Positions 5,578 to 31,581 of a DNA stretch of 32,000 bases are shown piece after piece. The notes beneath the pieces were generated by a model, which worked only from the letters and a program-made list of their open reading frames with translations, searched no databases and was not told the DNA's origin. Source of the DNA: Micrococcus luteus NCTC 2665 (GTDB taxonomy: Bacteria; Actinomycetota; Actinomycetes; Actinomycetales; Micrococcaceae); contig NC_012803.1 of assembly GCF_000023205.1 (NCBI RefSeq), positions 570,001 to 602,000 of the forward strand. Reading direction: 5' to 3'. The first letter of the stretch is position 1; every line of letters starts with the position of its first letter. The position numbers were made by a program, and so were the translations under genes.

Positions 5578-5602
5578 CGCCCGGCGGCCACCCGGCCCCG
5601 GC

Positions 5603-6187: not shown

Positions 6188-6218
6188 GGTAGGCCACCGC
6201 CCCGGGCCGTCCGCCGAG

Positions 6219-6224
6219 TAGGGT
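6219..6224 (+). promoter_or_regulatory. Putative -10 box TAGGGT, 7 nt before GTG 6232 (leaderless geometry)
   Basis: TAGGGT-ggcgggc-GTG. The same TAGNNT-N7-start geometry recurs at ahcY, tatD and rsmA. Confidence 0.35.
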
Positions 6225-6231
6225 GGCGGGC

Positions 6232-6543: not shown

Positions 6544-6573
6544 CGCGGCACGTGTCGTGCCGTCCGGGGCGTC

Positions 6574-6579
6574 GCTAGG
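6574..6579. repeat. Target-site duplication GCTAGG (left copy) of the IS481-family element
   Basis: An identical hexamer lies at 7697-7702, directly abutting the inverted-repeat ends. It matches the NCTAGN target known for IS481. Confidence 0.8.
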
Positions 6580-7582: not shown

Positions 7583-7696
7583 GAGTGGGTCTCTTTTCGG
7601 GCAGGTGGGTGGTGTAGGAACTTCCATCCTGCGGGAGAGGCCCACTCGTCTCATCTCAGCCCGGCCCTCGTGCCAAGAACCTCATGCCCCACAACA
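6580..7696 (-). mobile_element. IS481-family insertion sequence, 1117 bp
   Basis: Imperfect terminal inverted repeats: TGTAGGAGGTCATGACGTTGTTGAC at 6580 versus the reverse complement TGTTGTGGGGCATGAGGTTCTTGGC ending at 7696 (about 20 of the first 28 positions match, TGT...ACA termini). It has a single DDE transposase ORF and a 6-bp GCTAGG direct repeat on both sides. Confidence 0.85.
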
Positions 7697-7711: not shown

Positions 7712-9271
<1,560 letters not shown>

Positions 9272-9318: not shown

Positions 9319-10539
9319 ATGGCTTCCCATCAGGCCGGCCGCGGGCGCGACGAGCGCGCCGGGGCGGAGGACTTCGAATCCGGGCTGGACTACGGCGCGT
9401 TCGTCCAGGACGACGCCGCGGACGACGCGAACCGCACCCAGGCGCTGCCCGCCATGGGCCGGGACGACGACGGCGGCGCCCAGCACACCTCGGCGCTCAG
9501 CCCCGAGGACCTCGCCGCGCTGCGCGGCGGGGACGCGGCGGCCGCAGACCGACGCGACGCCGGCCGCCCGGCCGCGGACGCCGACCGCGACATCGTCGCC
9601 TCCCGGGCCGTGCCCGAGGGCGACCGGCGGCCGCTGCCCGGTGCCGACGAGCTCGGCCCGCTGAGCGCCGCCGTCGGGGCCCGCGCGGCAGGGTCGAGCA
9701 CAGCCGCCCCGGTCGACCGCTACCCCGAGGACGGCACCGCCGCCCCCATGGCGCAGGCGGCGGCCCTGCAGGGCCCCACGCCGGAGGAGCGCGCGCGCCT
9801 GCCCAAGGCGGGCCCGCGCTTGGCGCAGGTGCTGCTGGCGATCCTCGCCCCGCTCGCCCTGCTGCTGGCCGCCGTCCGCCTCGTGGCGAGCCCGGTGTTC
9901 CTGTGGCTGGAGTACCACCGACCCGGGTTCCCCGCGGACCGGTTCGGCTTCACCCTCGCCGACCGCATGCACTACGGCTCCGCCGGGCTGGACTACGTGA
10001 CCAACCTGGCCGGGCCGCGGTACCTCAGCAGCCTCACGCACCAGGGCGCGCCGTTGTTCACCGAGGTCGAGGTCGACCACATGACGGACGTGAAGACCGT
10101 GCTGTGGATCGCCGCCGCGGCGCTCGTGCTGCTCGTGGTGGTGTGCGCCCTGCTCATCGCGTCCCTGCTGCGCACCAGCCCCGGCGGGGTGCGCCGCGCC
10201 CTGTTCGCCGGCGCCGTGTGGCTGCCGCTCGCGGTGATCGCGCTCGCGGTCCTGGCGGTGCTGGGCTGGGAGACGTTCTTCGCCGGGTTCCACTCGCTGT
10301 TCTTCGCGGACGGCACGTGGACGTTCTCCGTGCGGGACGCCCTCATCCGCCTCTACCCCGAGCAGTTCTGGGTGGACGCCGCCGTGGTGGTCGGGCTGGT
10401 GACCCTGCTGGCGTCCCTCGTGACGCTCGTGGTCACGTGGCCCACGCGACGCCGTCGTGAGCTGAGCGCGGACCGCCGCGAGCAGCTGCTGCGCACCCGC
10501 CTGCGGTGGGCCCGGGAGGACGACGCCGAGGTGCGCTGA
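9319..10539 (+). CDS. Integral membrane protein, TIGR01906/DUF1461-like, with a long acidic Ala-rich N-terminal region
   Basis: Part of track ORF 8014..10539 from MASHQAGRGRDE. The C-terminal half VFLWLEYHRPGFPADRFGFTLADRMHYGSAGLDYV...FHSLFFADGTWTFSVRDALIRLYPEQFW has four or five TM segments. GAGAGAGG lies upstream of the ATG at 9319. Confidence 0.7.
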   Translation: MASHQAGRGRDERAGAEDFESGLDYGAFVQDDAADDANRTQALPAMGRDDDGGAQHTSALSPEDLAALRGGDAAAADRRDAGRPAADADRDIVASRAVPEGDRRPLPGADELGPLSAAVGARAAGSSTAAPVDRYPEDGTAAPMAQAAALQGPTPEERARLPKAGPRLAQVLLAILAPLALLLAAVRLVASPVFLWLEYHRPGFPADRFGFTLADRMHYGSAGLDYVTNLAGPRYLSSLTHQGAPLFTEVEVDHMTDVKTVLWIAAAALVLLVVVCALLIASLLRTSPGGVRRALFAGAVWLPLAVIALAVLAVLGWETFFAGFHSLFFADGTWTFSVRDALIRLYPEQFWVDAAVVVGLVTLLASLVTLVVTWPTRRRRELSADRREQLLRTRLRWAREDDAEVR

Positions 10540-10561
10540 CCGCCGCCGGACGGCACCGGGA

Positions 10562-10596
10562 ACGGGCCGGGAGGACGAGGCGTCCTCCCGGCCCGT
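10562..10596. terminator. Bidirectional intrinsic-terminator-like hairpin between convergent genes
   Basis: ACGGGCCGGGAGGACG-agg-CGTCCTCCCGGCCCGT is a perfect 16-bp stem with a 3-nt loop. It lies between the stops at 10539 (+) and 10616 (-). Confidence 0.6.
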
Positions 10597-10615
10597 CGTC
10601 GTCCGGGGGGCGGGG

Positions 10616-12454
10616 TCAGCGGCGGTAGAGGGCCTCGACGTCCTCGGCGTGGTCCTCGATCACCTGGGCCCGCTTGAGCTTCTGGGACTGGGTGACGTGC
10701 CCGGAGTCCTCGGTGAACGGGTGGTCCAGGATGCGGAAGCGGCGGATGGACTCGGCGCGGGAGACGCCCGCGTTGACCTGGTCCACCGCCTCCTGGATCG
10801 AGGCCAGCACGGTGGGGTCCGTGGCGGCCTCGGCCGGAGTGAGGCTGAGCTCGCGGTCCAGGGCCCACTGGGTGAGGGCCTCGGCGTCCAGGGTGATGAG
10901 GGCGCCCACGAACGGGCGGTTCTCCCCGACCACCACGACGTGCTCGATGAGCCGGTGCTGGCGCAGCGCCTCCTCCATGGGTGTGGGGTACACGTTCTTG
11001 CCGCCGGCGGTGATGATCACGTCCTTCTTGCGGCCGGTGATCCGCAGGAAGCCGTGCTCGTCCAGCGCGCCGATGTCCCCGGTGCGGAAGAAGCCGTCTT
11101 CCATCGCCTCCGCCGACGCCTTCGGCATGCCGTGGTAGCCGTCGAACACCACGGGCCCGCGGATGAGGATCTCGCCGTCCTCGGCGATCTTCACCGTCAC
11201 CCCGGCCACGGGCAGGCCCACGGTGCCCACGCGGTGCGCGCCGGGGATGTTCACGGTGGCCGGCGCGGTGGTCTCCGTGAGGCCGTAGCCCTCCACGATC
11301 GGGATGCCGGCGCCGCGGAAGAAGTGCACCAGCTCCGGGGAGAGGGCGGACGCGCCGGACACGCACGAGATCACCTCGCCGCCGAGGGCCTCCCGGATCT
11401 TGCGATAGACCAGCCGGTCGAACAGCGCACGCCGGGCGCGCAGCAGGGCCGAGGGGCCGGGGCCGTCCCCGAACTCGGCCTCGTCCACGGCCGTGGACCA
11501 CTCGATGGCGGTGCGCTTGGCCGCCGCGTAGATCCGCCCGGTGCCGCCCTTCTGGGCCTTGGCCTCGATGCCGGCCTCGACCTTCTCGAACACGCGCGGC
11601 ACGGCCAGCAGCCACGTGGGGTGGAAGGAGGCGAGGTCGCCGAGCAGCGTGGCCGGGGAACCGGAGTGGGCCACCTGGATGCGGGCGTACAGGCAGATGA
11701 CCTGGACGGCGTGGGCGAGCACGTGGGCCAGCGGGAGGAAGAGCAGGGTGCGCGACGTCGTCGTCTCCGGGGACCACTGGACCACCTCGCGCGCGAAGTG
11801 CAGCACGTTGATGGCCGCGCCCACGAAGTTGCCGTGCGTGATCACGGCGCCCTTCGGGCGGCCGGTGGTGCCGGAGGTGTAGACGATCGAGGCGGGGCTG
11901 GCGAGGGTCGCCAGGGAGCGGGCGTGCTCGACGGCGTCGTCCGACACGAACGCGCCGGCCTCGGCCAGCTCCGCCAGCCCCGCGTCCGTCAGCGGGAACG
12001 TCGCCACGTCCACGCCCGCGTGCCCGGCGGCCTCGGCGACACGCTCGTCGAGCTCCTCGCTGCCGACGGCGACCACCCGCAGCCCCGAGTCCGTGACGAT
12101 GTGCTCCACCTGGTGGGCGGAGGAGGTCTCGTAGATCGGCACGGAGACGGCGCCGGCGAACCACACGGCCTGGTCGAGGACGGCCCACGCGTAGGAGGTG
12201 GGGGAGAACAGGCCCACCCGGTCCCCGGGCTGGACGCCGCGGGCGATGAGGCCGGCCGCCACGGCGCGCACCTGGGTCAGGAACGCGGTGAAGTGGACGT
12301 CCACCCAGCCGCCCGCGCCGTTGCGCTGGGCGTACACGGGGGCGTCCGGCCGATCGGCACAGGAGGCGACGATCAGGTCCGTGATGTTGGAGTCCGCCGG
12401 CGGCATGCCGACGAGCTCGGTGGCGGACTCATGGACGGGGCTCTGGTTCTGCAC
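10616..12454 (-). CDS. fadD: Long-chain fatty-acid--CoA ligase (AMP-binding, FadD15-like)
   Basis: IVYTSGTTGRPKGAVITHGNF (AMP-binding motif), EGYGLTETT, FRTGDIG, ITGRKKDVIITAGGKNVYP. The GTG at 12454 is preceded by TACGCT-N6; the alternative start is ATG 12406. The track ORF 10616..14023 continues upstream as Arg-rich read-through. Confidence 0.85.
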   Translation of the reverse strand: MQNQSPVHESATELVGMPPADSNITDLIVASCADRPDAPVYAQRNGAGGWVDVHFTAFLTQVRAVAAGLIARGVQPGDRVGLFSPTSYAWAVLDQAVWFAGAVSVPIYETSSAHQVEHIVTDSGLRVVAVGSEELDERVAEAAGHAGVDVATFPLTDAGLAELAEAGAFVSDDAVEHARSLATLASPASIVYTSGTTGRPKGAVITHGNFVGAAINVLHFAREVVQWSPETTTSRTLLFLPLAHVLAHAVQVICLYARIQVAHSGSPATLLGDLASFHPTWLLAVPRVFEKVEAGIEAKAQKGGTGRIYAAAKRTAIEWSTAVDEAEFGDGPGPSALLRARRALFDRLVYRKIREALGGEVISCVSGASALSPELVHFFRGAGIPIVEGYGLTETTAPATVNIPGAHRVGTVGLPVAGVTVKIAEDGEILIRGPVVFDGYHGMPKASAEAMEDGFFRTGDIGALDEHGFLRITGRKKDVIITAGGKNVYPTPMEEALRQHRLIEHVVVVGENRPFVGALITLDAEALTQWALDRELSLTPAEAATDPTVLASIQEAVDQVNAGVSRAESIRRFRILDHPFTEDSGHVTQSQKLKRAQVIEDHAEDVEALYRR

Positions 12455-12522: not shown

Positions 12523-14145
12523 TCAGATCCAGCTGCTGAACCACATCCGCCAGCGCCACTGGTCGTACGGGATGACGTCGCCGATCCACACGGGAAGGAA
12601 GAACAGGGACACGGCGACGGCGATCGTCACGTACGCCAGCACCAGGGCCGAGCCCCAGCGGGGCCCGGGCCGGCGGCCCGGCCGCAGCAGCAGCGAGAGC
12701 GCCAGGGCGATCATCATCACGAGGAAGGGCTCGTAGGCGATCGTGTAGAAGAAGAACATGGTCCGCTCGGGCCACAGGAACCACACCAGCTGCCCGGCCG
12801 CGTAGGCGCCGAGCAGGGCGCCGGCCCGCCAGTCCCGGTGGCGCACCAGCAGCCACACGCACACGAGGACGGCGGCCAGGCCCGTCCACCACACGAACGG
12901 GTTGGCGATGTCCGTGATGGCCGACGAGCACGCGCCCGCGGCGTCCGCCGGGCAGATCCCCTCGCCGGGCTCTGCGCCCTCGTAGTAGTAGCTCACGGGC
13001 CGGCCCATGAACGGCCAGGTCCACGGGTTGGCGGCGTAGTCGTGGGGGCTGGTGAGGCCCTGGTGGAAGGTCGTGGACTCCTCGTGGTAGTGCCACAGGG
13101 AGCGCAGCGGGCCGGGGACCAGCCCGGCGAGCAGGCCCTCCGGCGGGTTGTCCCGGTGCCAGTCCCGGTAGTAGCCGCCCCCCGTGACGAACCAGCCGGT
13201 CCACGAGGCCAGGTAGGCGACCAGGCCGCCGCCCACCACGGCCACGAACGCGTACAGGCCGTCCTTCTCGACGCCGGCCCACGCCCAGTGCCGCACCCCG
13301 GCGGTCCGGCGCGCGGACATGTCCCACAGGACCGTGAGCAGGCCGAAGGCCGCCATGAACGCCAGCCCGGAGAGCTTCACGGCGCAGCCGGCGCCCAGCA
13401 GCACGCCCGCGAGCAGTCGCCACGGGCGCCAGCCGAGCCACGGCCCGCTGGCCAGGGCGTCGCGTCCCCGCCGGGCGACGTCGAGGGCGAGCCGCTCCGC
13501 GAGCAGCCGCCGCCCGTGCACGCGGTCCGCCAGCAGCGCGGCGAAGGCCGCGAGCACGAAGAACGAGAGGAAGATGTCCAGCAGCCCGATGCGGGACATC
13601 ACCAGGTGGTGGCCCTCCACGGCCAGCAGCAGCCCGGCGACCGCGCCCAGGGACACCGAGCGCAGCAGGTGCTGCGTGGCGAGGGCGACCAGCAGGACGG
13701 AGAGCGTGCCGGCCACCGCGGCGCTGAACCGCCAGCCCACCCCGTTGTCCGGGCCGAACGCGAGCATGCCCAGGCCGATCAGCCACTTGCCCAGCGGCGG
13801 GTGCACCACGTAGGCGGCCCCCTCGAGCGGCTCCGCCTCGCCGCGCGCGAACGCGTCGTTGACGTCCTCGTCCCACCGCCGCTCGTAGCCGGACTCCAGG
13901 AGGGAGTAGGCGTCCTTGGGGTAGTAGGTCTCGTCGAAGATCAGCTGATCCGGGTGGGCCAGGTTCGTGAACCGCAGGACGCCGGCGATCGCCGTGACCA
14001 GCAGCGGCAGGATCCAGTGCCACCGCGTCAGGGGTGCCGCACTCACCCCGAGGCGGGCGCGCAGGGCGGCGACGCCGAAGGGGCCGTCGTCGGCCGCGAC
14101 GGCGGCGGGGCGGGGGGCGAGGGCGGTGGCGGGCACGGGCTCCAT
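12523..14145 (-). CDS. pmt: Dolichyl/polyprenyl-phosphate-mannose--protein O-mannosyltransferase
   Basis: MEPVPATAL...LIFDETYYPKDAYSLLESGYE...VVHPPLGKWLIGLGM... has many TM segments and the C-terminus YDQWRWRMWFSSWI. It is divergent from rsmI, as in mycobacteria. The start is moderately uncertain. Confidence 0.85.
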   Translation of the reverse strand: MEPVPATALAPRPAAVAADDGPFGVAALRARLGVSAAPLTRWHWILPLLVTAIAGVLRFTNLAHPDQLIFDETYYPKDAYSLLESGYERRWDEDVNDAFARGEAEPLEGAAYVVHPPLGKWLIGLGMLAFGPDNGVGWRFSAAVAGTLSVLLVALATQHLLRSVSLGAVAGLLLAVEGHHLVMSRIGLLDIFLSFFVLAAFAALLADRVHGRRLLAERLALDVARRGRDALASGPWLGWRPWRLLAGVLLGAGCAVKLSGLAFMAAFGLLTVLWDMSARRTAGVRHWAWAGVEKDGLYAFVAVVGGGLVAYLASWTGWFVTGGGYYRDWHRDNPPEGLLAGLVPGPLRSLWHYHEESTTFHQGLTSPHDYAANPWTWPFMGRPVSYYYEGAEPGEGICPADAAGACSSAITDIANPFVWWTGLAAVLVCVWLLVRHRDWRAGALLGAYAAGQLVWFLWPERTMFFFYTIAYEPFLVMMIALALSLLLRPGRRPGPRWGSALVLAYVTIAVAVSLFFLPVWIGDVIPYDQWRWRMWFSSWI

Positions 14146-14233
14146 GCTAGGGGGACGGGTGGACGGCGAGACGTGCACGGTGACCGGGGCCGTAGGCTCG
14201 GGGCAGCCGTCCCGTCCGTCGAAAGGTCGTCCC

Positions 14234-15091
14234 ATGCCCGAGGGCCGCATCGTCCTGGCCGCCACCCCCATCGGCAACCTCGGGGACGCGTCCGCGCGCC
14301 TGCGTGAGCTGCTGGCGGAGGCGGACGTGATCGCCGCCGAGGACACCCGGACCGCGCGGCGCCTGTGCGCCGGACTGGGCGTCACCCCGGCGGGCAGGGT
14401 GGTGGCCCATCACGAGCACAACGAGGCGGCCTCCGCCCAGGGGCTGCTGGACCAGGTGCGGGGCGGTGCCACGGTGGCGGTGGTCTCGGACGCGGGCATG
14501 CCCACGGTCTCGGACCCGGGGTACCGGCTCGTGGCGGCCGCGGTGTCCGCAGGGCTGCCCGTGACCTGCGCGCCCGGCCCCTCCGCCGTGACCACCGCGC
14601 TCGCCCTCTCCGGCCTGCCGACGGACCGGTTCGCCTTCGACGGCTTCGTCCCCCGCAAGGACGGGGAACGACGGCGATGGCTCACCTCCCTGCTGACCGA
14701 GGCGCGCACCGTGGTCGCCTTCGAATCGCCGCAGCGTCTGGCGGACGCGCTGGCCGTCGTCGTGGAGGTCCTCGGACCGGAACGGCCGGTGTGCGTGGCC
14801 CGCGAGCTCACCAAGCTGCACGAGGAGGTGGTGCGCGGCACCGCGGCCGAGGTGCAGGCCTGGGCTGCGGAGCGGCACGCGGGGGAGGGGATCCGCGGGG
14901 AGATCGTGCTGGTGATCGGGCCGCCCGCGCCCGGCGCCGAGGGCGAGGCGTCCGAGGCGGACGCCGTCGCCGAGGTGGCGGTGCTGGTGGAGTCCGGCAC
15001 CCGGCTCAAGGAGGCCGTGGCCGCGGTGGCCGGAGCCCACGGGATGCGGAGCCGGGAGCTCTACCAGGCGGTGCTCGCGGCCCGGGGCTGA
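14234..15091 (+). CDS. rsmI: 16S rRNA (cytidine1402-2'-O)-methyltransferase
   Basis: MPEGRIVLAATPIGNLGDASARLRELLAEADVIAAEDTR...VSDAGMPTVSDPGYRLV...ARELTKLHEEV. GAAAGG lies upstream of the ATG. Confidence 0.9.
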   Translation: MPEGRIVLAATPIGNLGDASARLRELLAEADVIAAEDTRTARRLCAGLGVTPAGRVVAHHEHNEAASAQGLLDQVRGGATVAVVSDAGMPTVSDPGYRLVAAAVSAGLPVTCAPGPSAVTTALALSGLPTDRFAFDGFVPRKDGERRRWLTSLLTEARTVVAFESPQRLADALAVVVEVLGPERPVCVARELTKLHEEVVRGTAAEVQAWAAERHAGEGIRGEIVLVIGPPAPGAEGEASEADAVAEVAVLVESGTRLKEAVAAVAGAHGMRSRELYQAVLAARG

Positions 15092-21957: not shown

Positions 21958-22001
21958 ATGTGACGTGGACCATCCCCCGCGTCAGGACGGAGGAGCAGAG
22001 C

Positions 22002-22274
22002 GTGATCGCGAGTCCCGGTGATCAACTGACCATGCCCCGGAGGGGATCGACCGTCCGCGGTCGTGTCCTGGGTCGGCCCTGGGAGCGCGGCCTCCCGCTG
22101 CTCGTCCTCATCGTGGACCTCGTCGCGGTGCTGCTGGCCACCTTCGTCTCGGCCCAGCTCCGGTTCGGCGCCTCGCGAAGCATCACCCTCCCCGGCGCCG
22201 AACTCATCGACTACGGCACCATCAGCCTCACGCTGAGCGCGGCGTGGGTGCTCGCGCTGGGCATCCAGGGGTCG
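22002..22274 (+). pseudogene. N-terminal fragment of a polyprenyl glycosylphosphotransferase (exopolysaccharide/undecaprenyl-phosphate sugar transferase), truncated by IS256
   Basis: GTG at 22002 follows GGAGGAG. The TM-rich N-terminus reads LPLLVLIVDLVAVLLATFVSAQLRFG...ISLTLSAAWVLALGIQGS. The reading frame then runs 8 codons into the IS and stops at 22298. Confidence 0.8.
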
Positions 22275-23698
22275 GTCAAGTCCCGAGTAGTGGTGTAACG
22301 CTCTGATCCTCCATTGGTGCTGTTAGGCGCTGAGTTCGAGGGTGGTTTCCGGTTCGGCGTTCACCTCGTTCCCGGTGTCGTCCACGGTGGTGAGGCGGCA
22401 GCGGGCCAACACCTCGAGGCCGAGGTAGCGGCGGCCCTCGGCCCACTCATCGGTCTGCTCAGCCAGCACCGCCCCGACCAGGCGCACGATCGCTGCCCGG
22501 TTCGGGAAGATGCCCACGGCGTCGGTGCGACGCCGGATCTCGCGGTTGAGCCGTTCGGCCGGGTTGTTCGACCAGATCTGGGTCCACACGTCCTTGGGGA
22601 ACGTGGTGAACGCCAGGATGTCCGCCCGGGCACCATCGAGGTGTTCGGCCACCGCGGGCAGCTTTTCGCTGACGTAGTCCAGCAGCCGGTCGAACTGGGC
22701 GTCCACGCTGGCGGCGTCGGGCTGGTCATACACCGAGTGCAGCATGGCCTTCACGGCCGGCCACATGGACTTGGGGGTGATGCCCATCAGGTTCGCCGCG
22801 TAGTGGGTCCGGCACCGCTGCCAGGTCGCTCCGGGCAGGTTCGCGGCGATGGCGTCCTTGAGCCCGGTGTGGGCGTCGGAAGTGACCAGGCGGACTCCGG
22901 TCAGGCCCCGGGCCACCAGGTCGGCGAAGAACTCGTTCCACGCCGACCCCGTCTCCGAGGTGGCCACCCGCAGGCCGAGGACCTCGCGGTGGCCGTCACC
23001 ATTGACCCCGGTGGCCAGCAGCACCACGGCGTTGACCACGCGCCCGCCCTCACGCACCTTCATCGTCAACGCGTCCGCGGCAACGAACGTGAACGGTCCC
23101 GCCTCCCCGAGCGGCCGGTGGCGGAAGGCCTCCACCTGCTCATCGAGGTCCGCGGCCATCCGGGACACCTGGGACTTCGACAGGGCATTGATGCCCAAGG
23201 TCTTGACCAGCTTGTCCATCCGCCGGGTAGAGACACCGGCCAGGTAGCAGTCTGCGACCACGGTGATCAGCGCCGATTCGGCCCGCTTGCGCCGCTCGAG
23301 CAGCCATTCCGGGAAGTAGGTGCCCGAGCGCAGCTTCGGGATGGCCACGTCCACGGTGCCGACCCGGGTGTCCAGGTCCCGGTGCCGGTACCCATTGCGC
23401 TGGGCCGTGCGGTCACGGGAGGGTTTGCCCCATTCGGCGCCGACCACCGCATCGGCGTCAGCGCAGAGCAGGGTGTTGATCATCGTCTGCAGCAGGTGGC
23501 GCATCATGTCCGGGGAGGCCTCGGACAGGGCTTCGCCCAGCAGGCCGGCAGGGTCGACAATATGAGGAGCGGTCATCGTGATGACTCCATTCGAGGATTC
23601 TGTGAGAGGTTGACTCGAAGGATCACACGGTGGCCGCGTCCACGTCTGGAACGACGTGCCCGACCACCGGGCGCTACACCACTATGCGGGACTCAACT
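22275..23698 (-). mobile_element. IS256-family insertion sequence, about 1424 bp
   Basis: Terminal inverted repeats: GTCAAGTCCCGAGTAGTGGTGTAACGC at 22275 versus the reverse complement (A)GTTGAGTCCCGCATAGTGGTGTAGCGC ending at 23698. A 9-bp direct repeat CAGGGGTCG lies at 22266-22274 and 23699-23707. It has a single Transposase_mut-type ORF. Confidence 0.85.
22323..23576 (-). CDS. IS256-family (MULE/Transposase_mut) transposase
   Basis: 417 aa: MTAPHIVDPAGLLGEAL...TAQRNGYRHRDLDTRVGTVDVAIPKLRSGTYFP...FVAADALTMKV...VTSDAHTGLKDAI...QRCRTHYAANL...SNNPAERLNREIRRR. Confidence 0.9.
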   Translation of the reverse strand: MTAPHIVDPAGLLGEALSEASPDMMRHLLQTMINTLLCADADAVVGAEWGKPSRDRTAQRNGYRHRDLDTRVGTVDVAIPKLRSGTYFPEWLLERRKRAESALITVVADCYLAGVSTRRMDKLVKTLGINALSKSQVSRMAADLDEQVEAFRHRPLGEAGPFTFVAADALTMKVREGGRVVNAVVLLATGVNGDGHREVLGLRVATSETGSAWNEFFADLVARGLTGVRLVTSDAHTGLKDAIAANLPGATWQRCRTHYAANLMGITPKSMWPAVKAMLHSVYDQPDAASVDAQFDRLLDYVSEKLPAVAEHLDGARADILAFTTFPKDVWTQIWSNNPAERLNREIRRRTDAVGIFPNRAAIVRLVGAVLAEQTDEWAEGRRYLGLEVLARCRLTTVDDTGNEVNAEPETTLELSA

Positions 23699-24928
23699 CA
23701 GGGGTCGCGGGACATCCGGATCCTGGGGGCGGGCAGCGAGGAGTACAAGCGGGTCCTGCAGAGCACTCTCTATCTCTTCGGCACCTTCGCGATCCTCGCC
23801 TATGCGGCAGGTCTCGAAGTGGCGCGCGGCTACGTGGGCCTGGCTCTGCCGCTGGGTGTCCTCCTGCTCCTGCTGGGCCGGTTCCTCGTGCGCAGGTGGG
23901 TGGCGCGGCAGCGACACCGCGGCAGGTTCCGGCGGCGGCTCCTGCTCGTCGGCGGCCCGAAGGCGGTCCGGCACATCTTCCAGACCCTCGACTCCGAGGC
24001 CGGCGCCGGCTACGCCCCCGTGGCGGCGGCTCTCCCCGGATACAAGGCCCGGCGGGAGGACTACCTCCCGATACCGGTCTCCACGGACCTGGACACCGTG
24101 GAGGACCTGGTCGCCCTCGTGGAAGAGCGCGACCTCGAAGCGGTGGTGATCACCTCGGGCCACTCGTTCGTCCCCGGGGACGTCCGCCGGCTGGGCTGGG
24201 AGCTGCAGGAGCGCGGCGTCTCCCTGATCATGGCGCCCGCCCTCGTGGACGTCGCCGGACCCCGTCTCCACACGCAGCCCCTCGCGGGTCTGCCGCTCAT
24301 CCACCTCTCCACCCCGCGCCTCTCCGAGGGCAAGGCATTCGTCAAGCGGGGGTTCGACGTCGTCGCGTCGGGTCTGGGCCTGATCATCATCTCGCCGCTG
24401 CTGATCGCCGTCGCGATCGCGGTCAAGGCCACGGACGGCGGGCCGGTGCTGTTCCGGCAGGAGCGCATCGGTCTCGGCGGCAGGCCGTTCACCATGCTCA
24501 AGTTCCGCTCCATGGTGGTGGACGCCGAGAAGATCCGGCAGCGGCTCGTCTCGGATGGCGGGGATGCGGACGTGCTGTTCAAGATGAAGGACGACCCGCG
24601 CATCACGAAGGTCGGCAGGTTCATCCGCCGCACCAGCATCGACGAGCTGCCCCAGCTCGTGAACGTGCTGCGGGGGGACATGTCCCTCGTGGGCCCGCGG
24701 CCCCACCTGCCGCACGAGGTCGAGGCCTATGACCAGTACGTGCACCGCCGGTTCCTGGTGAAGCCCGGCATCACGGGCCTCTGGCAGGTCTCCGGCCGGT
24801 CCGACCTCCCGTGGGAGGAGGCGGTCCGCCTGGACCTCTACTACGTGGAGAACTGGTCCATCCTGGGCGACCTCGTGATCCTGGGGCGGACCGTCAAGGC
24901 CGTGATCGCCGCCGACGGCGCCTATTGA
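23699..24928 (+). pseudogene. C-terminal fragment (catalytic Bac_transf domain) of the same glycosylphosphotransferase
   Basis: QGSRDIRILGAGSEEYKRV..., then the catalytic domain FVKRGFDVVASGLGLIIISPLLIAVAIAVKATDGGPVLFRQERIGLGGRPFTMLKFRSM...DELPQLVNVLRGDMSLVGPRP...PGITGLWQVSGRSD. Removing the IS and one repeat copy restores one ORF of about 497 codons. Confidence 0.85.
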
Positions 24929-25101: not shown

Positions 25102-26595
25102 ATGTCCCAGCCGTCCGCTCGTCCCTCCGCCGTGATCGTCCTGGCCGCGGGCCAGGGCACCCGCATGAAGTCGACGACGCCGAAGATCATGCATGCGATC
25201 GGGGGACGCTCCCTCGTGGGCCACGCGCTCGCGGCGGCGTGGTCGCTTGCGCCGGAGCACCTCGTGGCCGTGGTCCGGCACGAGCGGGCCCGCGTGGCCG
25301 AGCACATCGAGACGGTGGCGGCCCAGCTGGGCATCGACGCGCTGGCGATCGCCGACCAGGACGACGTGCCGGGCACGGGCCGCGCCGTCGAGCTGGGCCT
25401 GGCCGCCCTGCCCGCGGACCTCGAGGGCACCGTCGTGGTGACCTACGGCGACGTCCCGCTGCTGACCCCGGAGACGCTCGCCCGCCTCGTCGCGGACCAC
25501 GAGGCGGACGGCAACGCCGTCACCGTGCTCACCGCCACCCTCGAGGACGCCACGGGCTACGGCCGCATCGTCCGCGACGCCGAGGGCCTCGTGGAGCGGA
25601 TCATGGAGCACAAGGACGCCCTCGCCCACGCCGAGTCCACGGGGGACGACTCCTTCGTGGCGATCCGCGAGGTCAACTCCGGCATCTACGCCTTCGACGC
25701 CGCCCTGCTGCGGCGCACGCTCCCGGCGATCTCCACGGACAACGTGCAGGGCGAGAAGTACCTCACGGACGTGCTGGGCATGGCCCGGGACGAGGGCGGC
25801 CGCGTGGCCTCCGTGGGCACGCAGGACGTGTGGGAGGTCGAGGGCGCCAACGACCGCCGCCAGCTCTCCGACCTGGGCCGTCGGCTGAACGAGCGCGTGC
25901 TGCGCCACTGGATGAAGGAGGGCGTCACCGTGGTGGACCCCTCCTCCACGTGGGTGGACGTCACCGTCACCTTGTCCTCGGACGTCACTCTCAAGCCGGG
26001 CACGCAGCTGCACGGTGCGACGTCGGTGGCCACCGGCGCCGTGGTGGGCCCGGACTCCACCCTCACGGACACGCAGGTGGGGGAGCGCGCCGTGGTCAAG
26101 CGGACCGACGCCACGGAGGCCGTGATCGGCGCGGACGCGAGCATCGGCCCGTTCACCTACCTGCGCCCGGGCACCGTGCTGGGCGAGGAGGGCAGGATCG
26201 GCGCGTTCTACGAGACGAAGAAGGTCACCATCGGCCGCGGCGCCAAGCTCTCCCACCTCGGCTACGCCGGCGACGCCGAGATCGGCGAGTACACGAACAT
26301 CGGCTGCGGCAACATCACCGCCAACTACGACGGCGTCAACAAGCACCGCACGGTGATCGGCGCGCACGTGCGCACCGGCTCCAACACGGTGTTCACGGCC
26401 CCGGTGACCGTGGGCGACGGCGCCTACACCGGCGCGGGCGCCGTGGTCCGCGAGGACGTGCCCGCCGGGGCACTGGCGCTGAACGCCGTGAGCCAGCGCA
26501 CCCTCGAGGGCTGGGTGCCGGCCAAGCGCCCGGGCACCTCCTCGGCCGAGGCCGCGCGGGCCGCCGGCGCGGAGGGCTCCGGCGCTCAGGGCTGA
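25102..26595 (+). CDS. glmU: Bifunctional UDP-N-acetylglucosamine diphosphorylase / glucosamine-1-phosphate N-acetyltransferase
   Basis: VIVLAAGQGTRMKSTTPKIMH, YGDVPLL, NSGIYAF, and a C-terminal left-handed beta-helix hexapeptide region (IGAFYETKK...IGCGNITANYDG...). GCAGGAG lies upstream of the ATG. Confidence 0.92.
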   Translation: MSQPSARPSAVIVLAAGQGTRMKSTTPKIMHAIGGRSLVGHALAAAWSLAPEHLVAVVRHERARVAEHIETVAAQLGIDALAIADQDDVPGTGRAVELGLAALPADLEGTVVVTYGDVPLLTPETLARLVADHEADGNAVTVLTATLEDATGYGRIVRDAEGLVERIMEHKDALAHAESTGDDSFVAIREVNSGIYAFDAALLRRTLPAISTDNVQGEKYLTDVLGMARDEGGRVASVGTQDVWEVEGANDRRQLSDLGRRLNERVLRHWMKEGVTVVDPSSTWVDVTVTLSSDVTLKPGTQLHGATSVATGAVVGPDSTLTDTQVGERAVVKRTDATEAVIGADASIGPFTYLRPGTVLGEEGRIGAFYETKKVTIGRGAKLSHLGYAGDAEIGEYTNIGCGNITANYDGVNKHRTVIGAHVRTGSNTVFTAPVTVGDGAYTGAGAVVREDVPAGALALNAVSQRTLEGWVPAKRPGTSSAEAARAAGAEGSGAQG

Positions 26596-26607
26596 CCCCG
26601 CGCGCCC
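26553..26607. repeat. 55-bp direct repeat, copy 1 (last 14 glmU codons, the stop, and 12 nt beyond)
   Basis: CGCGCGGGCCGCCGGCGCgGAGGGCTCCGGCGCTCAGGGCTGACCCCGCGCGCCC. It matches 28223-28277 at 54 of 55 positions; the single G/C difference at 26571 versus 28241 is synonymous. Confidence 0.9.
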
Positions 26608-26680: not shown

Positions 26681-27250
26681 GTGACGTATCGTGACGATCT
26701 GTGGGACGTGGCTGCGGGGAACCACGGGGTCATCACCACTACGGAAGCGGAGGAGGCGGGCGTGCCCGCCGTCGAGGTCCGCAAGCTCGCCCAGCGCGGC
26801 GTTCTGCGGAGGCTGGCCCACGGGGTGTACCTCCATCGCCAGGTTCCCCGCGACCGGTTCACGGACGCGGCGGAGGCCGTGGCCACGGTCGGTGAAGATG
26901 CATTCCTGGACTGGGACGCAGTGCTGTCACTGTACGACCTCGCCCTGGTCGATCCCTCCGTCGTACGGGTGGGCGTGACGAGGCGGTACCGCGGCTCGCC
27001 GCGCGCGCATGTACGAGTGACACGACGCCGTCCCCCGCCGGGCGACGAGGACCTCACCTTTCACGGCGGCGTGCGAGGCCTCACGATCAACCAAGCCCTT
27101 CGTGAGGCACTCGACCGCATCCCTCTCGAGCGCGTCGCCGCTGCGATCGAGGAGGCCCGCGCGCGCGGGCTGCTCACGGTGGGCGAGGCGAGGAGCTTGA
27201 AGAGGGACCTGGAGGCGCGGCAGAACGGTGGACATCGTGGCGGTCGCTGA
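26681..27250 (+). CDS. abiEi: AbiEi-family antitoxin / transcriptional regulator (type IV TA, COG5340-like)
   Basis: N-terminal winged-HTH pattern GVITTTEAEEAGVPAVEVRKLAQRGVLRRLAHGVYLH, then SLYDLALVDPSVVRVGV...LTINQALREAL. The GTG start follows GAGGTGG. It overlaps the next ORF. Confidence 0.75.
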   Translation: MTYRDDLWDVAAGNHGVITTTEAEEAGVPAVEVRKLAQRGVLRRLAHGVYLHRQVPRDRFTDAAEAVATVGEDAFLDWDAVLSLYDLALVDPSVVRVGVTRRYRGSPRAHVRVTRRRPPPGDEDLTFHGGVRGLTINQALREALDRIPLERVAAAIEEARARGLLTVGEARSLKRDLEARQNGGHRGGR

Positions 27251-28265
27251 CGTGGTCGTGGGCCTGGGCGATCTGGGAGCTCGAGGTGCGCCCAGGAGCG
27301 AAGGCCAACTCAACCGTCGACTGGAGGCGATCGCTGACGCGATGGGCGTTCCGGTGGACCGGGCGCGCCGGTTGCTGGGAGCAGTGATCGTGGCGCAGAT
27401 GTTGCCGGAAGGCGTCGTAGTCAAGGGTGCAAATGGCGTTCGACTCCGCCATGGAGCCACCGGGACGCGGGCGACCCGGGATCTCGATCTACTGGCTCGC
27501 GATCCCCAGCAGGCGCTGAAGGACTTGACCGGGTTCGTCGACCGGGGATGGGGGGCCGCGCCCGGGAGCAAGAGAGAACTCAAGGCCGACCCGGCTGCGA
27601 CCCGGGTGGCCTTCTTCGGCACGGTGCATGAGGACGATCCTGCGGAGCCTCTCGGAGTGCCCGATCCCTACGTCCTGTCACGAGCGAAGGTGACCCTGCA
27701 TTTTCTCTCCCCGAGGACAAGTTGGGTGTCGGTCCCGATCGAGATCGGGCGCGACGAATTCGAGGGCAGCACGCTGGCGCAGCCAGTCGAGGTCGTGGCA
27801 CCCCAGGTCGCGGAGGCGGTCACCGCGTTGGGATGTGGAACACCGCGGTCTGTGGCCGTGATGGCTGTCGAGCAGCAGCTCGCACAGAAGATCCATGCCG
27901 TCACGGATCCACATCAGACGCGAGGCCACGATCTCGTGGACATCCAGTTGCTCTGGCATGGGGCGGAGGCCGAGGGTGGTGTCGACATCCCGTTGCTCGC
28001 AGATCTCGTCAGCCGTACTTTCATGTTTCGGTCACCCGGCCGGACTGCGGCAGGACACACACCGCATGAGTGGCCGCCTCCGGTCGCTCACGTCCGGACT
28101 CTCGAGCAGGGGTACCTGGATGCGCTGGAGGAGACACGAGTGGGTGCGGAGGGACAGGCCAGGCTCCTGCAGCCGCGCGTGTCCGACGCGGCGGATTGGC
28201 TGGAGTCGTTGATCACAAGGATCGCGCGGGCCGCCGGCGCCGAGGGCTCCGGCGCTCAGGGCTGA
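27228..28265 (+). CDS. abiEii: AbiEii/AbiGii (DUF1814) nucleotidyltransferase toxin
   Basis: VVVKGANGVRLRHGATGTRATRDLDLLA (G..x..RxTxDLDL NTase motif), VPIEIG, VEQQLAQKIHAVTD (conserved Lys), TRGHDLVDIQLL (RxxDxxD). The start is ambiguous (GTG 27228, 27252 or 27258). The last 14 codons lie in repeat copy 2 and are identical to the glmU C-terminus. Confidence 0.75.
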   Translation: MDIVAVADVVVGLGDLGARGAPRSEGQLNRRLEAIADAMGVPVDRARRLLGAVIVAQMLPEGVVVKGANGVRLRHGATGTRATRDLDLLARDPQQALKDLTGFVDRGWGAAPGSKRELKADPAATRVAFFGTVHEDDPAEPLGVPDPYVLSRAKVTLHFLSPRTSWVSVPIEIGRDEFEGSTLAQPVEVVAPQVAEAVTALGCGTPRSVAVMAVEQQLAQKIHAVTDPHQTRGHDLVDIQLLWHGAEAEGGVDIPLLADLVSRTFMFRSPGRTAAGHTPHEWPPPVAHVRTLEQGYLDALEETRVGAEGQARLLQPRVSDAADWLESLITRIARAAGAEGSGAQG

Positions 28266-28277
28266 CCCCGCGCGCCC
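28223..28277. repeat. 55-bp direct repeat, copy 2
   Basis: See 26553-26607. Confidence 0.9.
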
Positions 28278-29364: not shown

Positions 29365-30117
29365 ATGGCCGAGCGCGTGGAGCCGGTCCGCGGGGACGAG
29401 GCCGACGGCGGGGCCACGGCCGCGCCGGAGCGGCGCGGCCCACGCCTGCCGTTCTGGGCCTCCCTGCTGCTGAACGTGGTGGTGGCCCTCGCGGTCGTCG
29501 CCGTGGTGCAGGCCCTGTGGGTGAAGGTGTACTCGGTGCCGTCCGGCTCGATGGAGAACACCCTCGAGGTGGGGGACCGCATGCTGGTCAACCGCACCGC
29601 CTACCCGGACGGGATGGCCGACTCCCAGGACGTGGTGGTCTTCACGGCCAACGAGGACTGGGCGCACCCCATGCCACCGGAGGGGGCCGTGGAGAACGCC
29701 GTCCGCACGTTCGGCGACCTCACCGGCATCGGCCGCTCGCACGAGCAGGCGCTGGTCAAGCGCGTGGTCGGCACCGCGGGGCAGACCGTGGAGTGCTGCA
29801 CCGCCGAGGGCGCCGTGACGGTGGACGGGGAGCCCCTGGACGAGCCATACATCCACAACGATCTGCCATTCATCCGGGACGAGCTGGACTGCGAGTCCGA
29901 GGTGATGTCCGCGCGCTGCTTCGGCCCGGTCACCGTGCCGGAGGACTCGATGCTCGTGCTCGGCGACCACCGCTCGAACTCGGCCGACTCCGTGATCGCG
30001 TGCCGCGGCATCCCCGCCGACCAGGCCGGGGACTGCGCGCGCTTCGTCACCCGCGAGGACATCGTGGGTGAGGTCTTCGTGACCGTCTGGCCGCCCACGC
30101 ACTGGGGCGGGCACTGA
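29365..30117 (+). CDS. lepB: Signal peptidase I (S26 family), Cys-rich paralogue
   Basis: TM anchor LLLNVVVALAVVAVV, catalytic Ser box VPSGSMENTL, Lys box LVKRVVG, and box E GDHRSNSADS. It starts 2 nt after the prs stop. Confidence 0.8.
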   Translation: MAERVEPVRGDEADGGATAAPERRGPRLPFWASLLLNVVVALAVVAVVQALWVKVYSVPSGSMENTLEVGDRMLVNRTAYPDGMADSQDVVVFTANEDWAHPMPPEGAVENAVRTFGDLTGIGRSHEQALVKRVVGTAGQTVECCTAEGAVTVDGEPLDEPYIHNDLPFIRDELDCESEVMSARCFGPVTVPEDSMLVLGDHRSNSADSVIACRGIPADQAGDCARFVTREDIVGEVFVTVWPPTHWGGH

Positions 30118-30163
30118 TCTCCTGAGGCGCGGGGCCTCCTGGGCGACGGCGGACCGTGCCGGC

Positions 30164-31303
30164 TCAGCCGGTCGTGGCCAGTTCCGCGGTGACCAGGGCG
30201 TCCATCGCCTCCCGCACCCGGGCCTCGGCGTCCTCGGGCACGGGCCCTTCGGCGCGGAGACGGCCCACCACGTCGGCGGCCGTCCGCGGCTCGTCCAGCA
30301 GGAGCCAGACGGAGGGGCCCAGACCTTCGAGCACGACCAGGCGGTCCGAGGCGAGCAGGACCAGGCGGCCGTCATCGAGCTGGATTCCGCACTCCGCACC
30401 GTGGCGCCGGACGGTTGCGCCGTCACCGCCCGGTGTCCCGGCGGTGGAGACTGTCCTCGGGCTGGCGGAGAGCTCCGGGTCATTGAGAGGCGTCCATGAC
30501 GGGCTCATCGGTGCGGGCTGCTGCGCGAGCAGCCCGTCTATCACGGGACGCAGGTCAGAGGCCTCCGAGTAGACGAGCCGGAGGGCGCCGCCCAGCCTGT
30601 CGAGCGTCCGGCACAGGGCGACCAGTCCACGCGGAAGATGGGCGACGGAGGACGTCTGGGGCACGAGGAGGGTCAACGCCTCCAGCAGGGGCATCGGCTC
30701 GGCACGCGCCGTCACGCGCTCGCCCGGCTCCCGGACACGCTCCAGCACGCAGATGCGCTGCAGCGTCGCCTCCGGGGCTTGACCGAGCCCTATCTCGTCC
30801 GGACTCACCTGATGCTTCGGACGGCTTCCAGACGGACTGAGCACGGAGAGCGGCTTGGGGTAGGGGGTGACGGCGAGATCCCCGGGGTGGACGATCGCCG
30901 TCTCGTCTGAGAGGTAGCCGTAGTGGGGTCCCAGGGTCCGAGTCGCCGTGGTCTTCCCCGTCCCCGACGCCGCGACCAGGACGACGGCGGCACCGGTCTC
31001 AAGGTCAGCCAGGCAGGCCGCATGGAACATCAGGTGGCTCCCGCGCCCCGCCTCGATGGCGTGGCGCGTGGCCCGGTGGACCAATTCCTCGTGGAACTGG
31101 TCCCACGACAGCGAGGCCAGACTCACACGGTCCACGTCCCCCCGTGAGGCCTCGCACGGTGTCGGGGTGCACCGTGACCACGCGCGGACGATGGCGGCAG
31201 ACTCGACCTCGTCGAGCGACGAGACGAGCAGGGACCCGGCCCCGGTCTCGATCGACCAGGTGGACGTGTCCCGGTGCTGGCAGTCGGTGGGATGCGCGGG
31301 CAT
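30164..31303 (-). CDS. Fusion protein: HPr-kinase-like P-loop domain plus C-terminal PqqD/RRE-like domain
   Basis: MFHAACLADLETGAAVVLVAASGTGKTTATRTLGPHYGYLSDETAIV has the HprK C-domain-like core. The C-terminus IQLDDGRLVLLASDRLVVLEGLGPSVWLLLDEPRTAADVVGRLRAEG...EARVREAMDALVTAELA has a PqqD-like pattern. The ATG at 31303 is preceded by GAGGAG. The track ORF extends to 31531, but that part has poor codon usage. Confidence 0.65.
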   Translation of the reverse strand: MPAHPTDCQHRDTSTWSIETGAGSLLVSSLDEVESAAIVRAWSRCTPTPCEASRGDVDRVSLASLSWDQFHEELVHRATRHAIEAGRGSHLMFHAACLADLETGAAVVLVAASGTGKTTATRTLGPHYGYLSDETAIVHPGDLAVTPYPKPLSVLSPSGSRPKHQVSPDEIGLGQAPEATLQRICVLERVREPGERVTARAEPMPLLEALTLLVPQTSSVAHLPRGLVALCRTLDRLGGALRLVYSEASDLRPVIDGLLAQQPAPMSPSWTPLNDPELSASPRTVSTAGTPGGDGATVRRHGAECGIQLDDGRLVLLASDRLVVLEGLGPSVWLLLDEPRTAADVVGRLRAEGPVPEDAEARVREAMDALVTAELATTG

Positions 31304-31581
31304 GGGGCTCCTCTGACGGGGGCAAGGCACTGAGGCAACTCTAGGGCGTGCGGCGCCGGCCCGCTGGGCCTGTGCGCTCGGCAGAGGGCGCTCCCGCGGT
31401 GACGAGGACGGCGGTGGTATCCTTGACGGGTTGCCCAGGCGAGGGAGCGCGCGCTCCGTGATCGACGAGGCCGCCGCCTGCGCGTCAGCATGCTGACCCG
31501 CTGCGGCACTGAAGCCCCCTCCTGGCCGCATCCCGCGCCGCCCCCGGCTGCGCGGCCGAGACCCCCACAGGAGGACGCATC

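Follow-up and report, generated by a model that had tools for sequence, protein, structure and literature searches.

An HprK-like kinase fused to a PqqD-type recognition element in Micrococcus luteus and its recurrent gene neighbours in Actinomycetota

What might be the role of a gene that joins a predicted kinase to a predicted peptide-binding domain and stands, at first sight, without partners? The question is raised by a stretch of 32,000 nucleotides from Micrococcus luteus NCTC 2665 (hereafter the window), in which one coding sequence (30164..31303, minus strand) specifies, as judged from its translation, Pfam and NCBIfam matches, an AlphaFold model and Foldseek comparisons, an HprK-like kinase of the Pfam ScmC family fused to a PqqD-type recognition element of the kind that binds peptides made by ribosomes and modified after translation (RiPP recognition element, RRE). 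A preliminary description, made from the letters of the window, had called this kinase-RRE gene an orphan and a self-contained device. That view does not hold: an S26 signal peptidase, which is also the convergent neighbour in the window, is a recurrent partner, and further partners are common in 80 related loci. The reading that we favour, and to which we give an even chance, is that a leader-guided serine kinase and the adjacent S26 peptidase form the minimal core of a phosphorylation and leader-removal system resembling the LPP (linear polyphosphorylated peptide) systems, located at surface-glycan loci and acting on a substrate supplied in trans.

Two domains in one polypeptide

The open reading frame (ORF) is a real gene of 379 amino acids (aa) plus stop. 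Its ATG at 31303 lies 4 nt from a ribosome-binding site, GAGGAG, read from the sequence (31308..31313, minus strand), and the N-termini of homologues align with this start; a longer reading of 455 aa, reaching to 31531, was rejected, as no homologue supports the extension. A database protein of the same length (P0001), annotated with PF27840 and PF05402, is 100% identical to the window protein, and several independent assemblies encode proteins that are identical or nearly so (P0001-P0003). Scans with Rfam and for tRNAs, promoters and terminators found nothing near the gene. Relatives are mostly deposited as 'PqqD family peptide modification chaperone' or 'hypothetical protein', and the current NCBI names miss the kinase domain.

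The kinase core comprises aa 86-262 (30518..31048, minus strand), is 45-70% identical across genera and has the fold of the HprK/P C-terminal domain and phosphoenolpyruvate carboxykinase (PEPCK), as indicated by a TIGR04352 match and by Foldseek. It is preceded by an N-terminal subdomain, aa 1-85 (31049..31303, minus strand), modelled as strand-strand-helix-strand and a long helix, which is the most variable part of the protein (32% identity to an M. luteus orthologue) and in which W42 is invariant. Invariant in 69 sequences is His94 (codon 31022..31024, minus strand) in the motif LMFHAA before the P-loop; so are S113, G114, G116, K117 and T119 of the Walker A motif S113-G-T-G-K-T-T119 (30947..30967, minus strand) and the acidic pair D133-E134 (30902..30907, minus strand), 16 residues after K117. 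The 69 sequences further share P151-L152, K163 and R189. Because of its spacing and the TIGR04352 match, the acidic pair is probably equivalent to the DD metal site of HprK-like peptide kinases.

At the level of profiles, the kinase part is a distant relative of known families. The NCBIfam model HprK_rel_A (TIGR04352) matches aa 88-154 over model positions 94-159 of 280 (E 5.4e-9; 35.5 bits against a cut-off of 200), ScmC (TIGR04249) is likewise below its cut-off (E 2.8e-4; 20.3 bits against 125), and the Pfam family ScmC (PF27840.1) is a precomputed match on P0001. Pfam Hpr_kinase_C and Hpr_kinase_N gave no match in the window protein at E up to 10. As a profile search of the PDB with the kinase part returned only generic ABC-transporter P-loops and no HprK structures, fold comparison was needed. 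An AlphaFold2 model built on the 69 homologues has a pLDDT of 94.1 and a pTM of 0.91, with low confidence limited to the first ~10 residues and ~aa 281-300 (pLDDT 69-78; ~98 for aa 261-280). Its best Foldseek matches in the PDB are HprK/P structures, namely 3tqf (E 3.2e-4, probability about 1.0, TM 0.52 on target length), 2qmh, 1jb1, 1kkl, 1knx and 1ko7 (to ~2e-2), and also ATP-dependent PEPCK. With these enzymes the protein shares the catalytic-domain fold, the P-loop, the upstream His and the downstream acidic residues. However, identity is 10-17%, the HprK N-terminal domain and any corresponding Pfam match are missing, an additional N-terminal subdomain and the C-terminal RRE are present, and the gene context is, in contrast to that of HprK/P, unrelated to the phosphotransferase system or carbon-catabolite control.

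The RRE, aa 298-379 (30167..30412, minus strand), is a winged helix of strands followed by three helices. Pfam PqqD (PF05402) matches aa 314-375 with 30.8 bits, above the gathering cut-off of 23.4, and the family profile matches the lasso RRE TbiB1 (5v1u, E 3.8e-5) and LppB (9x8z_B, E 5.8e-5); matches to the NCBIfam ScmD and lasso PqqD models are weak. In the AlphaFold2 model strands (298-325) precede helices (329-372) in the expected winged-helix order, and the domain superimposes on TbiB1 (5v1v) with a TM of 0.63 on target length. W333 is nearly invariant. The segment between the two domains, aa 263-297 (30413..30517, minus strand), is poorly conserved, with 7-37% identity outside the closest relatives. 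In LppB, Asp70 hydrogen-bonds the leader Tyr (PMC13381572). A profile alignment places a hydrophobic residue at the equivalent position of the family consensus, and Arg there in the window protein, a change in the pocket that, as weak evidence, would fit a leader of the Trp type.

Much of the preliminary description is confirmed by these data: the HprK-like His/P-loop/acidic kinase fold by the model, the Foldseek matches and the invariant residues, the C-terminal PqqD-type RRE by its score, and the union of both in one polypeptide by the 379-aa ORF. The profile searches it proposed succeeded for PqqD, with a score above cut-off, but found no Pfam Hpr_kinase_C match, and the kinase was recognised by fold comparison.

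The fusion itself is not exceptional. A protein search yielded 206 relatives, in Micrococcus, Kocuria, Rothia, Arthrobacter, Renibacterium, Neomicrococcus, Zhihengliuella and Agromyces, and a scan of one genome per species, with the P-loop stretch S113-T119 as search pattern, yielded 192 confirmed ones. When the kinase part alone served as query in an exhaustive search, the cluster representatives numbered 1481 at E<=1e-3 and 1006 at E<=1e-10. Of the 150 top-ranking ones, the PqqD part is fused in 116, and about 30 stop neatly behind the final kinase helix and appear genuinely unfused; in Nocardioides (L060), a 274-aa copy is accompanied by a separate PqqD gene. Most members of this large, uncharacterised family of Actinomycetota (Pfam ScmC plus PqqD) have the fusion, which is not a one-off. 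We found no relevant literature on PF27840, on HprK-related kinases with PqqD, on PqqD with tyrosine kinases and exopolysaccharide, or on HPr kinases in connection with RRE-Finder. One metagenome-assembled genome (MAG) of an actinomycete (L073) encodes two kinase-RRE paralogues a few kb apart (7797-9107 and 10139-11665), each with genes for leader-bearing proteins and a Wzz/BY-kinase nearby.

Neighbours and leaders in related loci

Which genes, then, accompany the kinase-RRE gene elsewhere? Neighbourhoods were counted at 80 loci among the 192 relatives, 1.26 Mb in total, by clustering all ORFs and annotating representatives; eight neighbour clusters were annotated in this way. Wzz and a BY tyrosine autokinase occur at 52 loci, mostly on the same strand and immediately downstream, and a nucleotidyltransferase of the family NTP_transf_5 (PF14907) at 39, usually ~1.6 kb downstream and mostly on the same strand. 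Immediately upstream, 34 loci have a small stand-alone PqqD protein of ~93 aa; also upstream, 30 have a cluster of secreted proteins with a median length of 196 aa. A low-molecular-weight phosphotyrosine phosphatase (LMW-PTP) lies nearby at 20, and an S26 peptidase ~50% identical to that of the window lies downstream and convergent at 17. Recurrent near family members are LMW-PTP, Wzy_C, LytR_cpsA_psr, UDP-sugar dehydrogenase and glycosyltransferases.

The module is fuller in Arthrobacter, Pseudarthrobacter, Agromyces and some Kocuria, and operons of the Arthrobacter type hold an extra free PqqD and NTP_transf_5 alongside the fused kinase-RRE. A BY-kinase stands beside the gene in 28 of 29 Arthrobacter, 13 of 13 Pseudarthrobacter, 2 of 2 Rathayibacter, 2 of 2 Nocardioides and 5 of 6 MAG loci; within 8 kb it was found in none of 12 Rothia and none of 5 Micrococcus loci, nor near most Kocuria copies. 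In Rothia (L014 at 5339-6988, and 10 other loci represented in the same ORF cluster), the kinase-RRE gene is located downstream of genes for a dCTP deaminase and for a secreted alkaline phosphatase that bears PT repeats, and is convergent with that of an Atg22-like transporter of the major facilitator superfamily. All 12 Rothia loci have a MauE-family gene (~3 kb upstream in L014; e.g. L041, 5895-6998), whose product in Rothia bears a CxxC motif; MauE-family membrane proteins are also encoded near the module in Agromyces (L091, 7801-8829), Neomicrococcus (L093, 15704-16783) and L096 (6685-7497).

Besides the kinase-RRE gene, the S26 peptidase is the only part of this module in the window. It is a bacterial-type signal peptidase I of 250 aa (29365..30117, plus strand; PF10502), scoring 100.4 bits with TIGR02227 (cut-off 47) and 18.8 bits with the archaeal model, and has one N-terminal membrane helix, the catalytic boxes SGSM and KRVVG, and six Cys. 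The Cys pattern is repeated in one Arthrobacter homologue whose sequence was read; a link with MauE in disulfide formation is possible. The ATG of the S26 gene follows the stop of the upstream gene prs by 2 nt, and the gap of 46 nt between the convergent stops of S26 and kinase-RRE (30118..30163) holds no detected terminator-like hairpin. On the other side, a divergent intergenic region of 278 nt read from the sequence (31304..31581) leads to rplY, which starts at 31582. The preliminary description had the three neighbours right, namely prs, the convergent S26 with its 46-nt gap, and the divergent rplY.

The two genes adjoin or neighbour one another in six genera, Micrococcus, Zhihengliuella, Neomicrococcus, Arthrobacter, Pseudarthrobacter and Agromyces, in three arrangements. 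In Micrococcus, S26 is convergent and adjacent. In Zhihengliuella flava (L090), it converges on a 43%-identical kinase-RRE gene with a gap of 5 nt, and prs, LMW-PTP, BY-kinase, PqqD, rplY and pth lie within a few kb; a convergent pair with a 3-nt gap is found in Neomicrococcus (L093). In Arthrobacter and Pseudarthrobacter, S26 is convergent with the operon in 13 of 42 loci. In Arthrobacter sp. CC3 (L092), leader protein, PqqD, kinase-RRE, Wzz-BY-kinase and NTP_transf_5 are followed by convergent S26 directly at the operon end. In Agromyces (L091), a 33%-identical kinase-RRE homologue overlaps the start of S26 on the same strand, and MauE, PqqD, Wzy_C, Wzz-BY-kinase and NTP_transf_5 follow. L096 brings together ScmC, LMW-PTP, MauE and S26 with fragments of PqqD and of a BY-kinase. 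At a Nesterenkonia S26 locus, the two flanks read, of about 4 and 7 kb, contain no kinase gene. The occurrence in six genera and three arrangements points to selection on the proximity of S26 and kinase-RRE, and argues for S26 as a conserved partner rather than a bystander.

A candidate for the substrate is provided by the secreted proteins encoded upstream, which share the leader [S/D/N]RRx[V/I]x[K/A/Q]G[V/A]AW[S/A/T]xP[V/A][I/L]...AP..A[S/A]AS. These proteins measure roughly 150-300 aa, with variable mature parts of roughly 130-270 aa, and come in one or two genes per module. The regular expression RRx(2-5)[KRQA]Gx(1-2)W[SAT]xP[VAI][IVLA]...AxAS has 48 matches in the 1.26 Mb, spread over 45 of the 80 loci, and 44 of the 48 are located no more than 2 kb upstream of the kinase gene. 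The sources are Arthrobacter, Pseudarthrobacter, A. ginkgonis with a tandem pair, Kocuria (L007 and L063, divergent) and four MAG loci. The leader is twin-arginine-like and ends in A-x-A-S, a signal-peptidase-I site with serine at the junction. Its invariant core, W-x-x-P-[V/A]-[I/L], has the form of the motif [Y/W]xxPx[L/V/I/F/A], the leader motif bound by lasso and LPP RREs (PMC13381572). Applied to the window and to all Micrococcus loci, the expression yielded only wrong-frame noise. One locus (L094) has the leader without a ScmC gene within 6 kb, and another (L095) lies at a contig end with one side readable. A search of proteins with a leader profile gave few source-named matches and none from Micrococcus; being biased to very short or fragmentary ORFs, it is uninformative on Micrococcus substrates. 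The related form RRT[IV].KGAAW[SA]VP[VA][IV]A...AAPA.AAS is widespread on short ORFs of 33-88 aa, many of them probably fragments (P0372-P0463), in Microbacterium, Phycicoccus, Paeniglutamicibacter and metagenomes, not always near a ScmC-family gene.

The window copy at the edge of a glycan island

How does the window copy compare with this picture? A tblastn search of the window with Wzz-BY-kinase, NTP_transf_5, small PqqD, leader protein, LMW-PTP, a GT2 glycosyltransferase and UDP-sugar dehydrogenase gave no real match; the apparent Wzz-BY-kinase match is an antisense ORF artefact, and the PqqD match is the kinase-RRE gene's own domain. Pfam scans of ~29 window ORFs detected no lasso cyclase, B2 protease, radical SAM/SPASM enzyme, exporter or NTP transferase, and no precursor-like ORF turned up in the window, where the motif YxxPxVLxHQxIxFETxxS itself was not scanned for. 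For the ORFs scanned, this agrees with the earlier statement that cyclase, leader protease, exporter and recognisable precursor are missing. As the partners are not in the window, the substrate would be encoded elsewhere.

In other M. luteus loci (L081-L088), glycosyltransferase genes start divergently from the kinase-RRE orthologue (GT2 and GT1 in L081-L083); in L085-L088 the glycan cluster extends over >=10 kb, also includes NeuB, a CMP-sugar synthetase (cytidylyltransferase) and several GT4 genes, and suggests a glycan containing a nonulosonic acid. Neither the window nor M. lacusdianchii (L005) has this adjoining cluster; in both, rplY lies directly beside an intact kinase-RRE gene. The identity to M. 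luteus proteins is 94% for glmU, 97% for prs, 95-97% for S26, 99% for an AbiE cassette and ~60% for kinase-RRE. At the nucleotide level it is 94-100% in prs and S26, 85% at 30148-30290 and 56-79% to ~31037, and the sequences are unalignable beyond; by domain, identity to the orthologue P0009 is 82% in PqqD, 70% in the kinase core and 32% in the N-terminal subdomain. This graded drop points to a recombination breakpoint inside the 3' end of the kinase-RRE gene, at the edge of a strain-variable glycan island. The larger share of A/T-ending codons that had been pointed out is real, GC content at third codon positions (GC3) being 0.87 compared with 0.97-0.99 in prs, S26, rplY and glmU. Horizontal transfer was rejected as its cause, the overall GC content of 0.718 equalling that of the neighbours; membership of the strain-variable island, with its breakpoint at the 3' end, is the better explanation.

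A polysaccharide setting is found in M. luteus and most relatives, and the window retains just a split Bac_transf gene. This gene, for a priming glycosyl-phosphate transferase 5 kb from the kinase-RRE gene, has its N-terminal ~90 codons at ~22000-22274 and is interrupted by an insertion sequence (IS) of the IS256/Mutator family (~22275-23698; transposase 22323-23576, minus strand) with 23-nt imperfect terminal inverted repeats and a 9-bp target duplication, CAGGGGTCG (22266-22274 and 23699-23707). As the glycan cluster is absent and Bac_transf is split, the strain appears to have lost the adjoining glycan pathway. The kinase-RRE gene itself does not look like a decaying remnant: every family-invariant residue is kept, and dN/dS for the kinase core is 0.19 against the closest DNA relative, indicating purifying selection.

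The AbiEi/AbiEii toxin-antitoxin cassette is located between glmU and prs (26681-28265; GC3 0.75-0.81), has a copy of a 55-nt direct repeat on either side (26553-26607 and 28223-28277; 98% identical), is 99% identical in M. luteus L081, and is absent from L082 and L085. Elsewhere in the window are genes for a PMT-family protein O-mannosyltransferase (12523-14385, minus strand) and an IS481-family transposase (6575-7654, minus strand); the rest consists of GtrA, WhiB, AdoHcy hydrolase, rsmI, tatD, ksgA and an ABC-F gene, and all of these are ordinary housekeeping surroundings.

A possible phosphorylation and leader-removal system

What can be deduced about function? Beyond the domains, fold, invariant residues, purifying selection and gene linkage described above, we infer kinase activity, a serine acceptor, leader binding, the identity of the substrate and a role for S26 as follows. 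The gene product would act in the cytoplasm as an HprK-like/ScmC-family kinase that uses ATP, modifies serine and carries a PqqD-type recognition element of its own at the C-terminus. The RRE would bind the conserved leader of a ribosomal substrate, most likely by strand addition to its beta-sheet, and the substrate so held would be phosphorylated by the core (His94, Lys117, Asp133/Glu134) on a serine near the junction of leader and core, possibly several times. The neighbouring, dedicated bacterial-type signal peptidase I would then remove the leader, and the pair of kinase-RRE and S26 would represent the minimal core of an actinobacterial LPP counterpart tied to cell-surface polysaccharide loci.

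LPP clusters (LppA/K/B/S/D/N), stated to be restricted to Bacillota and located within capsule loci, encode a precursor of 35-200 aa with a conserved [Y/W]xxP leader and a variable C-terminus, together with the HprK-like LppK, the discrete RRE LppB, the archaeal-type SpI peptidase LppS, the NTP transferase LppN and an exporter similar to MsbA; Ser3 of the core is the residue that LppK polyphosphorylates, and leader cleavage by LppS requires LppB (Popov et al., Nat Commun 2026; PMC13381572). The actinobacterial family resembles them in its HprK-like kinase, here recognised by fold and motifs, in the PqqD-type RRE, the SpI-family peptidase, the NTP transferase, the capsule or polysaccharide loci, and candidate precursors that join a conserved N-terminal leader of the [Y/W]xxP form to a variable remainder. 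It differs in that it belongs to Actinomycetota, has the RRE fused to the kinase rather than discrete (loci of the Arthrobacter type adding a free PqqD), employs a bacterial-type (Ser/Lys, TIGR02227) instead of an archaeal, SipW-type peptidase, has no MsbA-like exporter among its annotated neighbours, and has Wzz/BY-kinase as a near-constant neighbour. Its candidate leaders are twin-arginine-like (RRxxxKGxAWSxPVI...AxAS), whereas those of LPPs read YxxPxVLxHQxIxFETxxS, and the window copy has no precursor, NTP transferase, exporter or discrete RRE.

In pseudomycoidin biosynthesis, PsmK phosphorylates a serine, the NTP transferase PsmN adds a hexose to the phosphate, and a D158A/D159A mutant of PsmK is inactive (PMC6993621). 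With PsmK and the paeninodin kinase PadeK our protein shares the P-loop kinase of HprK C-terminal fold and the acidic pair after the P-loop, probably corresponding to the essential D158/D159 of PsmK, and related loci pair the kinase with a PF14907-type nucleotidyltransferase, as with PsmK and PsmN. In contrast to those lasso systems, the annotated loci have no cyclase and no B1 or B2, the RRE is fused, Pfam Hpr_kinase_C does not match, and the acceptor, a C-terminal Ser in the lasso peptides, would be a Ser near the leader/core junction. An HprK-like protein likewise accompanies a PqqD protein in the HPr-rel-A system (TIGR04352 with PqqD_rel_X, TIGR04353) and in SynChlorMet (ScmC, TIGR04249, with ScmD, TIGR04248), whose models are the best sequence-level relatives of the kinase core, though scores are far below the equivalog cut-offs; there, PqqD is separate, and the partners, a second kinase B and radical SAM/SPASM enzymes, respectively, are absent here.

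Several observations weigh against an LPP-like system. A substrate or leader ORF, NTP_transf_5, small PqqD, exporter and BY-kinase are missing from the window and from every Micrococcus locus examined, and the Rothia and most Kocuria copies are without all module partners. Leaders of this type are also found at a distance from ScmC genes and may represent a general signal of actinobacteria. With NCBIfam the kinase stays far below the equivalog cut-offs, and it has no Pfam Hpr_kinase_C match, its likeness to LppK, PadeK and PsmK being one of fold and motifs. S26, which is coupled translationally to prs and 95-97% conserved, could be a housekeeping paralogue kept by synteny in Micrococcaceae. 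Finally, as S26 is of bacterial type, with an extracytoplasmic, Cys-rich catalytic domain, topology makes a direct RRE-assisted presentation of the kind seen with LppS unlikely, and the leader may simply be cut off like any signal peptide.

In a more specific proposal, twin-arginine signal peptides of Micrococcales (RRxxxKGxAW[S/A]xP[V/A]I...AxA-S) would themselves double as RiPP-style leaders. The built-in RRE of the cytoplasmic kinase would read WxxP inside the signal peptide, the serine at the cleavage junction would be phosphorylated, and NTP_transf_5, in fuller modules, would glycosylate the phosphate. After export, the Cys-rich signal peptidase I would free a phospho(glyco)sylated surface protein, possibly coupled to, or priming, the strain-specific wall polysaccharide of the adjoining Wzz/BY-kinase locus; the window would then hold the minimal core of kinase-RRE and peptidase, with substrates elsewhere in the genome. 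We regard this proposal as somewhat unlikely.

Could the protein instead regulate surface polysaccharide assembly, its kinase acting on the machinery of Wzz/BY-kinase and LMW phosphatase or on a glycan intermediate, and its PqqD part serving as a protein adaptor, for example for the tail of the co-polymerase? The Wzz/BY-kinase beside the gene in 52 of 80 loci, the recurrence nearby of LMW-PTP, Wzy_C, LytR_cpsA_psr, UDP-sugar dehydrogenase and glycosyltransferases, the position at the edge of the M. luteus glycan island, with which the gene diverges, and a fold in common with PEPCK, which uses a small molecule, would suit such a regulator. We nevertheless consider it unlikely, given that PqqD domains of known function bind peptides, that leader genes are placed more specifically than the BY-kinase (44 of 48 <=2 kb upstream), that the sole characterised HprK-like enzymes in comparable gene sets phosphorylate serines of peptides, that LPP clusters are also found in capsule loci without a shown regulator role, and that in Micrococcus, Rothia and most Kocuria a BY-kinase is missing from the 8 kb around the gene. 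Less credence still is due to the stand-alone device of the preliminary description, which would recognise and phosphorylate a substrate in trans without dedicated partners. Rothia (12 loci) and most Kocuria do keep the gene without module partners, a fused RRE makes a separate chaperone unnecessary, and S26 is the only partner in the window; yet the S26 linkage is repeated in six genera and three arrangements, operons of the Arthrobacter type retain a free PqqD and NTP_transf_5, and even the Rothia gene has company in a MauE-family gene (12 of 12) and an alkaline phosphatase gene close by (11 of 12).

That the window copy is a functionless remnant, drifting to decay after the loss of its glycan cluster and partners, strikes us as improbable. 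The cluster present in other M. luteus is indeed absent beside it, Bac_transf is split by an IS256-like insertion 5 kb away, GC3 is below that of the neighbours, and identity to the M. luteus orthologues is ~60% compared with 94-97% for flanking genes. All this is set against an intact frame with all family-invariant residues, the dN/dS of 0.19 relative to the closest relative, a very confident AlphaFold model, the intact and also rplY-adjacent gene of M. lacusdianchii, and the identical or near-identical copies in several independent assemblies. The preliminary description had envisaged a decayed remnant in case the orthologues sat inside complete lasso or RiPP clusters; lasso clusters are not where they sit, but many do lie in a different conserved module, the LPP-like one, of which the window copy is a reduced form. 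A tailoring kinase of a lasso cluster or of a SynChlorMet-type radical-SAM RiPP cluster, located elsewhere or lost, is hardly credible. The weak NCBIfam matches to ScmC, ScmD and lasso PqqD, the membership in Pfam ScmC and the precedent of HprK-like kinases as lasso tailoring enzymes bring it to mind, but the equivalog scores are far below cut-off, the scanned window ORFs include no cyclase, B2 protease or radical SAM/SPASM enzyme, and no Asn-synthase-like cyclase, transglutaminase-like B2 protease or radical SAM protein was found in the Pfam-annotated related loci or in the eight annotated neighbour clusters.

For the window, our analysis turns an apparent orphan into a two-gene unit of kinase-RRE and S26 at the boundary of a strain-variable surface-glycan island. 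This copy is the least informative member of a family that, overall, makes a good experimental target. If the LPP-like reading is true, peptide phosphorylation of the LPP type would extend from Bacillota to Actinomycetota with an altered architecture, in which the RRE is part of the kinase, the peptidase is bacterial in type, and the leaders resemble signal peptides and precede proteins of ~150-300 aa instead of short peptides. The close and repeated linkage to Wzz/tyrosine-kinase capsule genes suggests a testable function in the glycans of the cell envelope.

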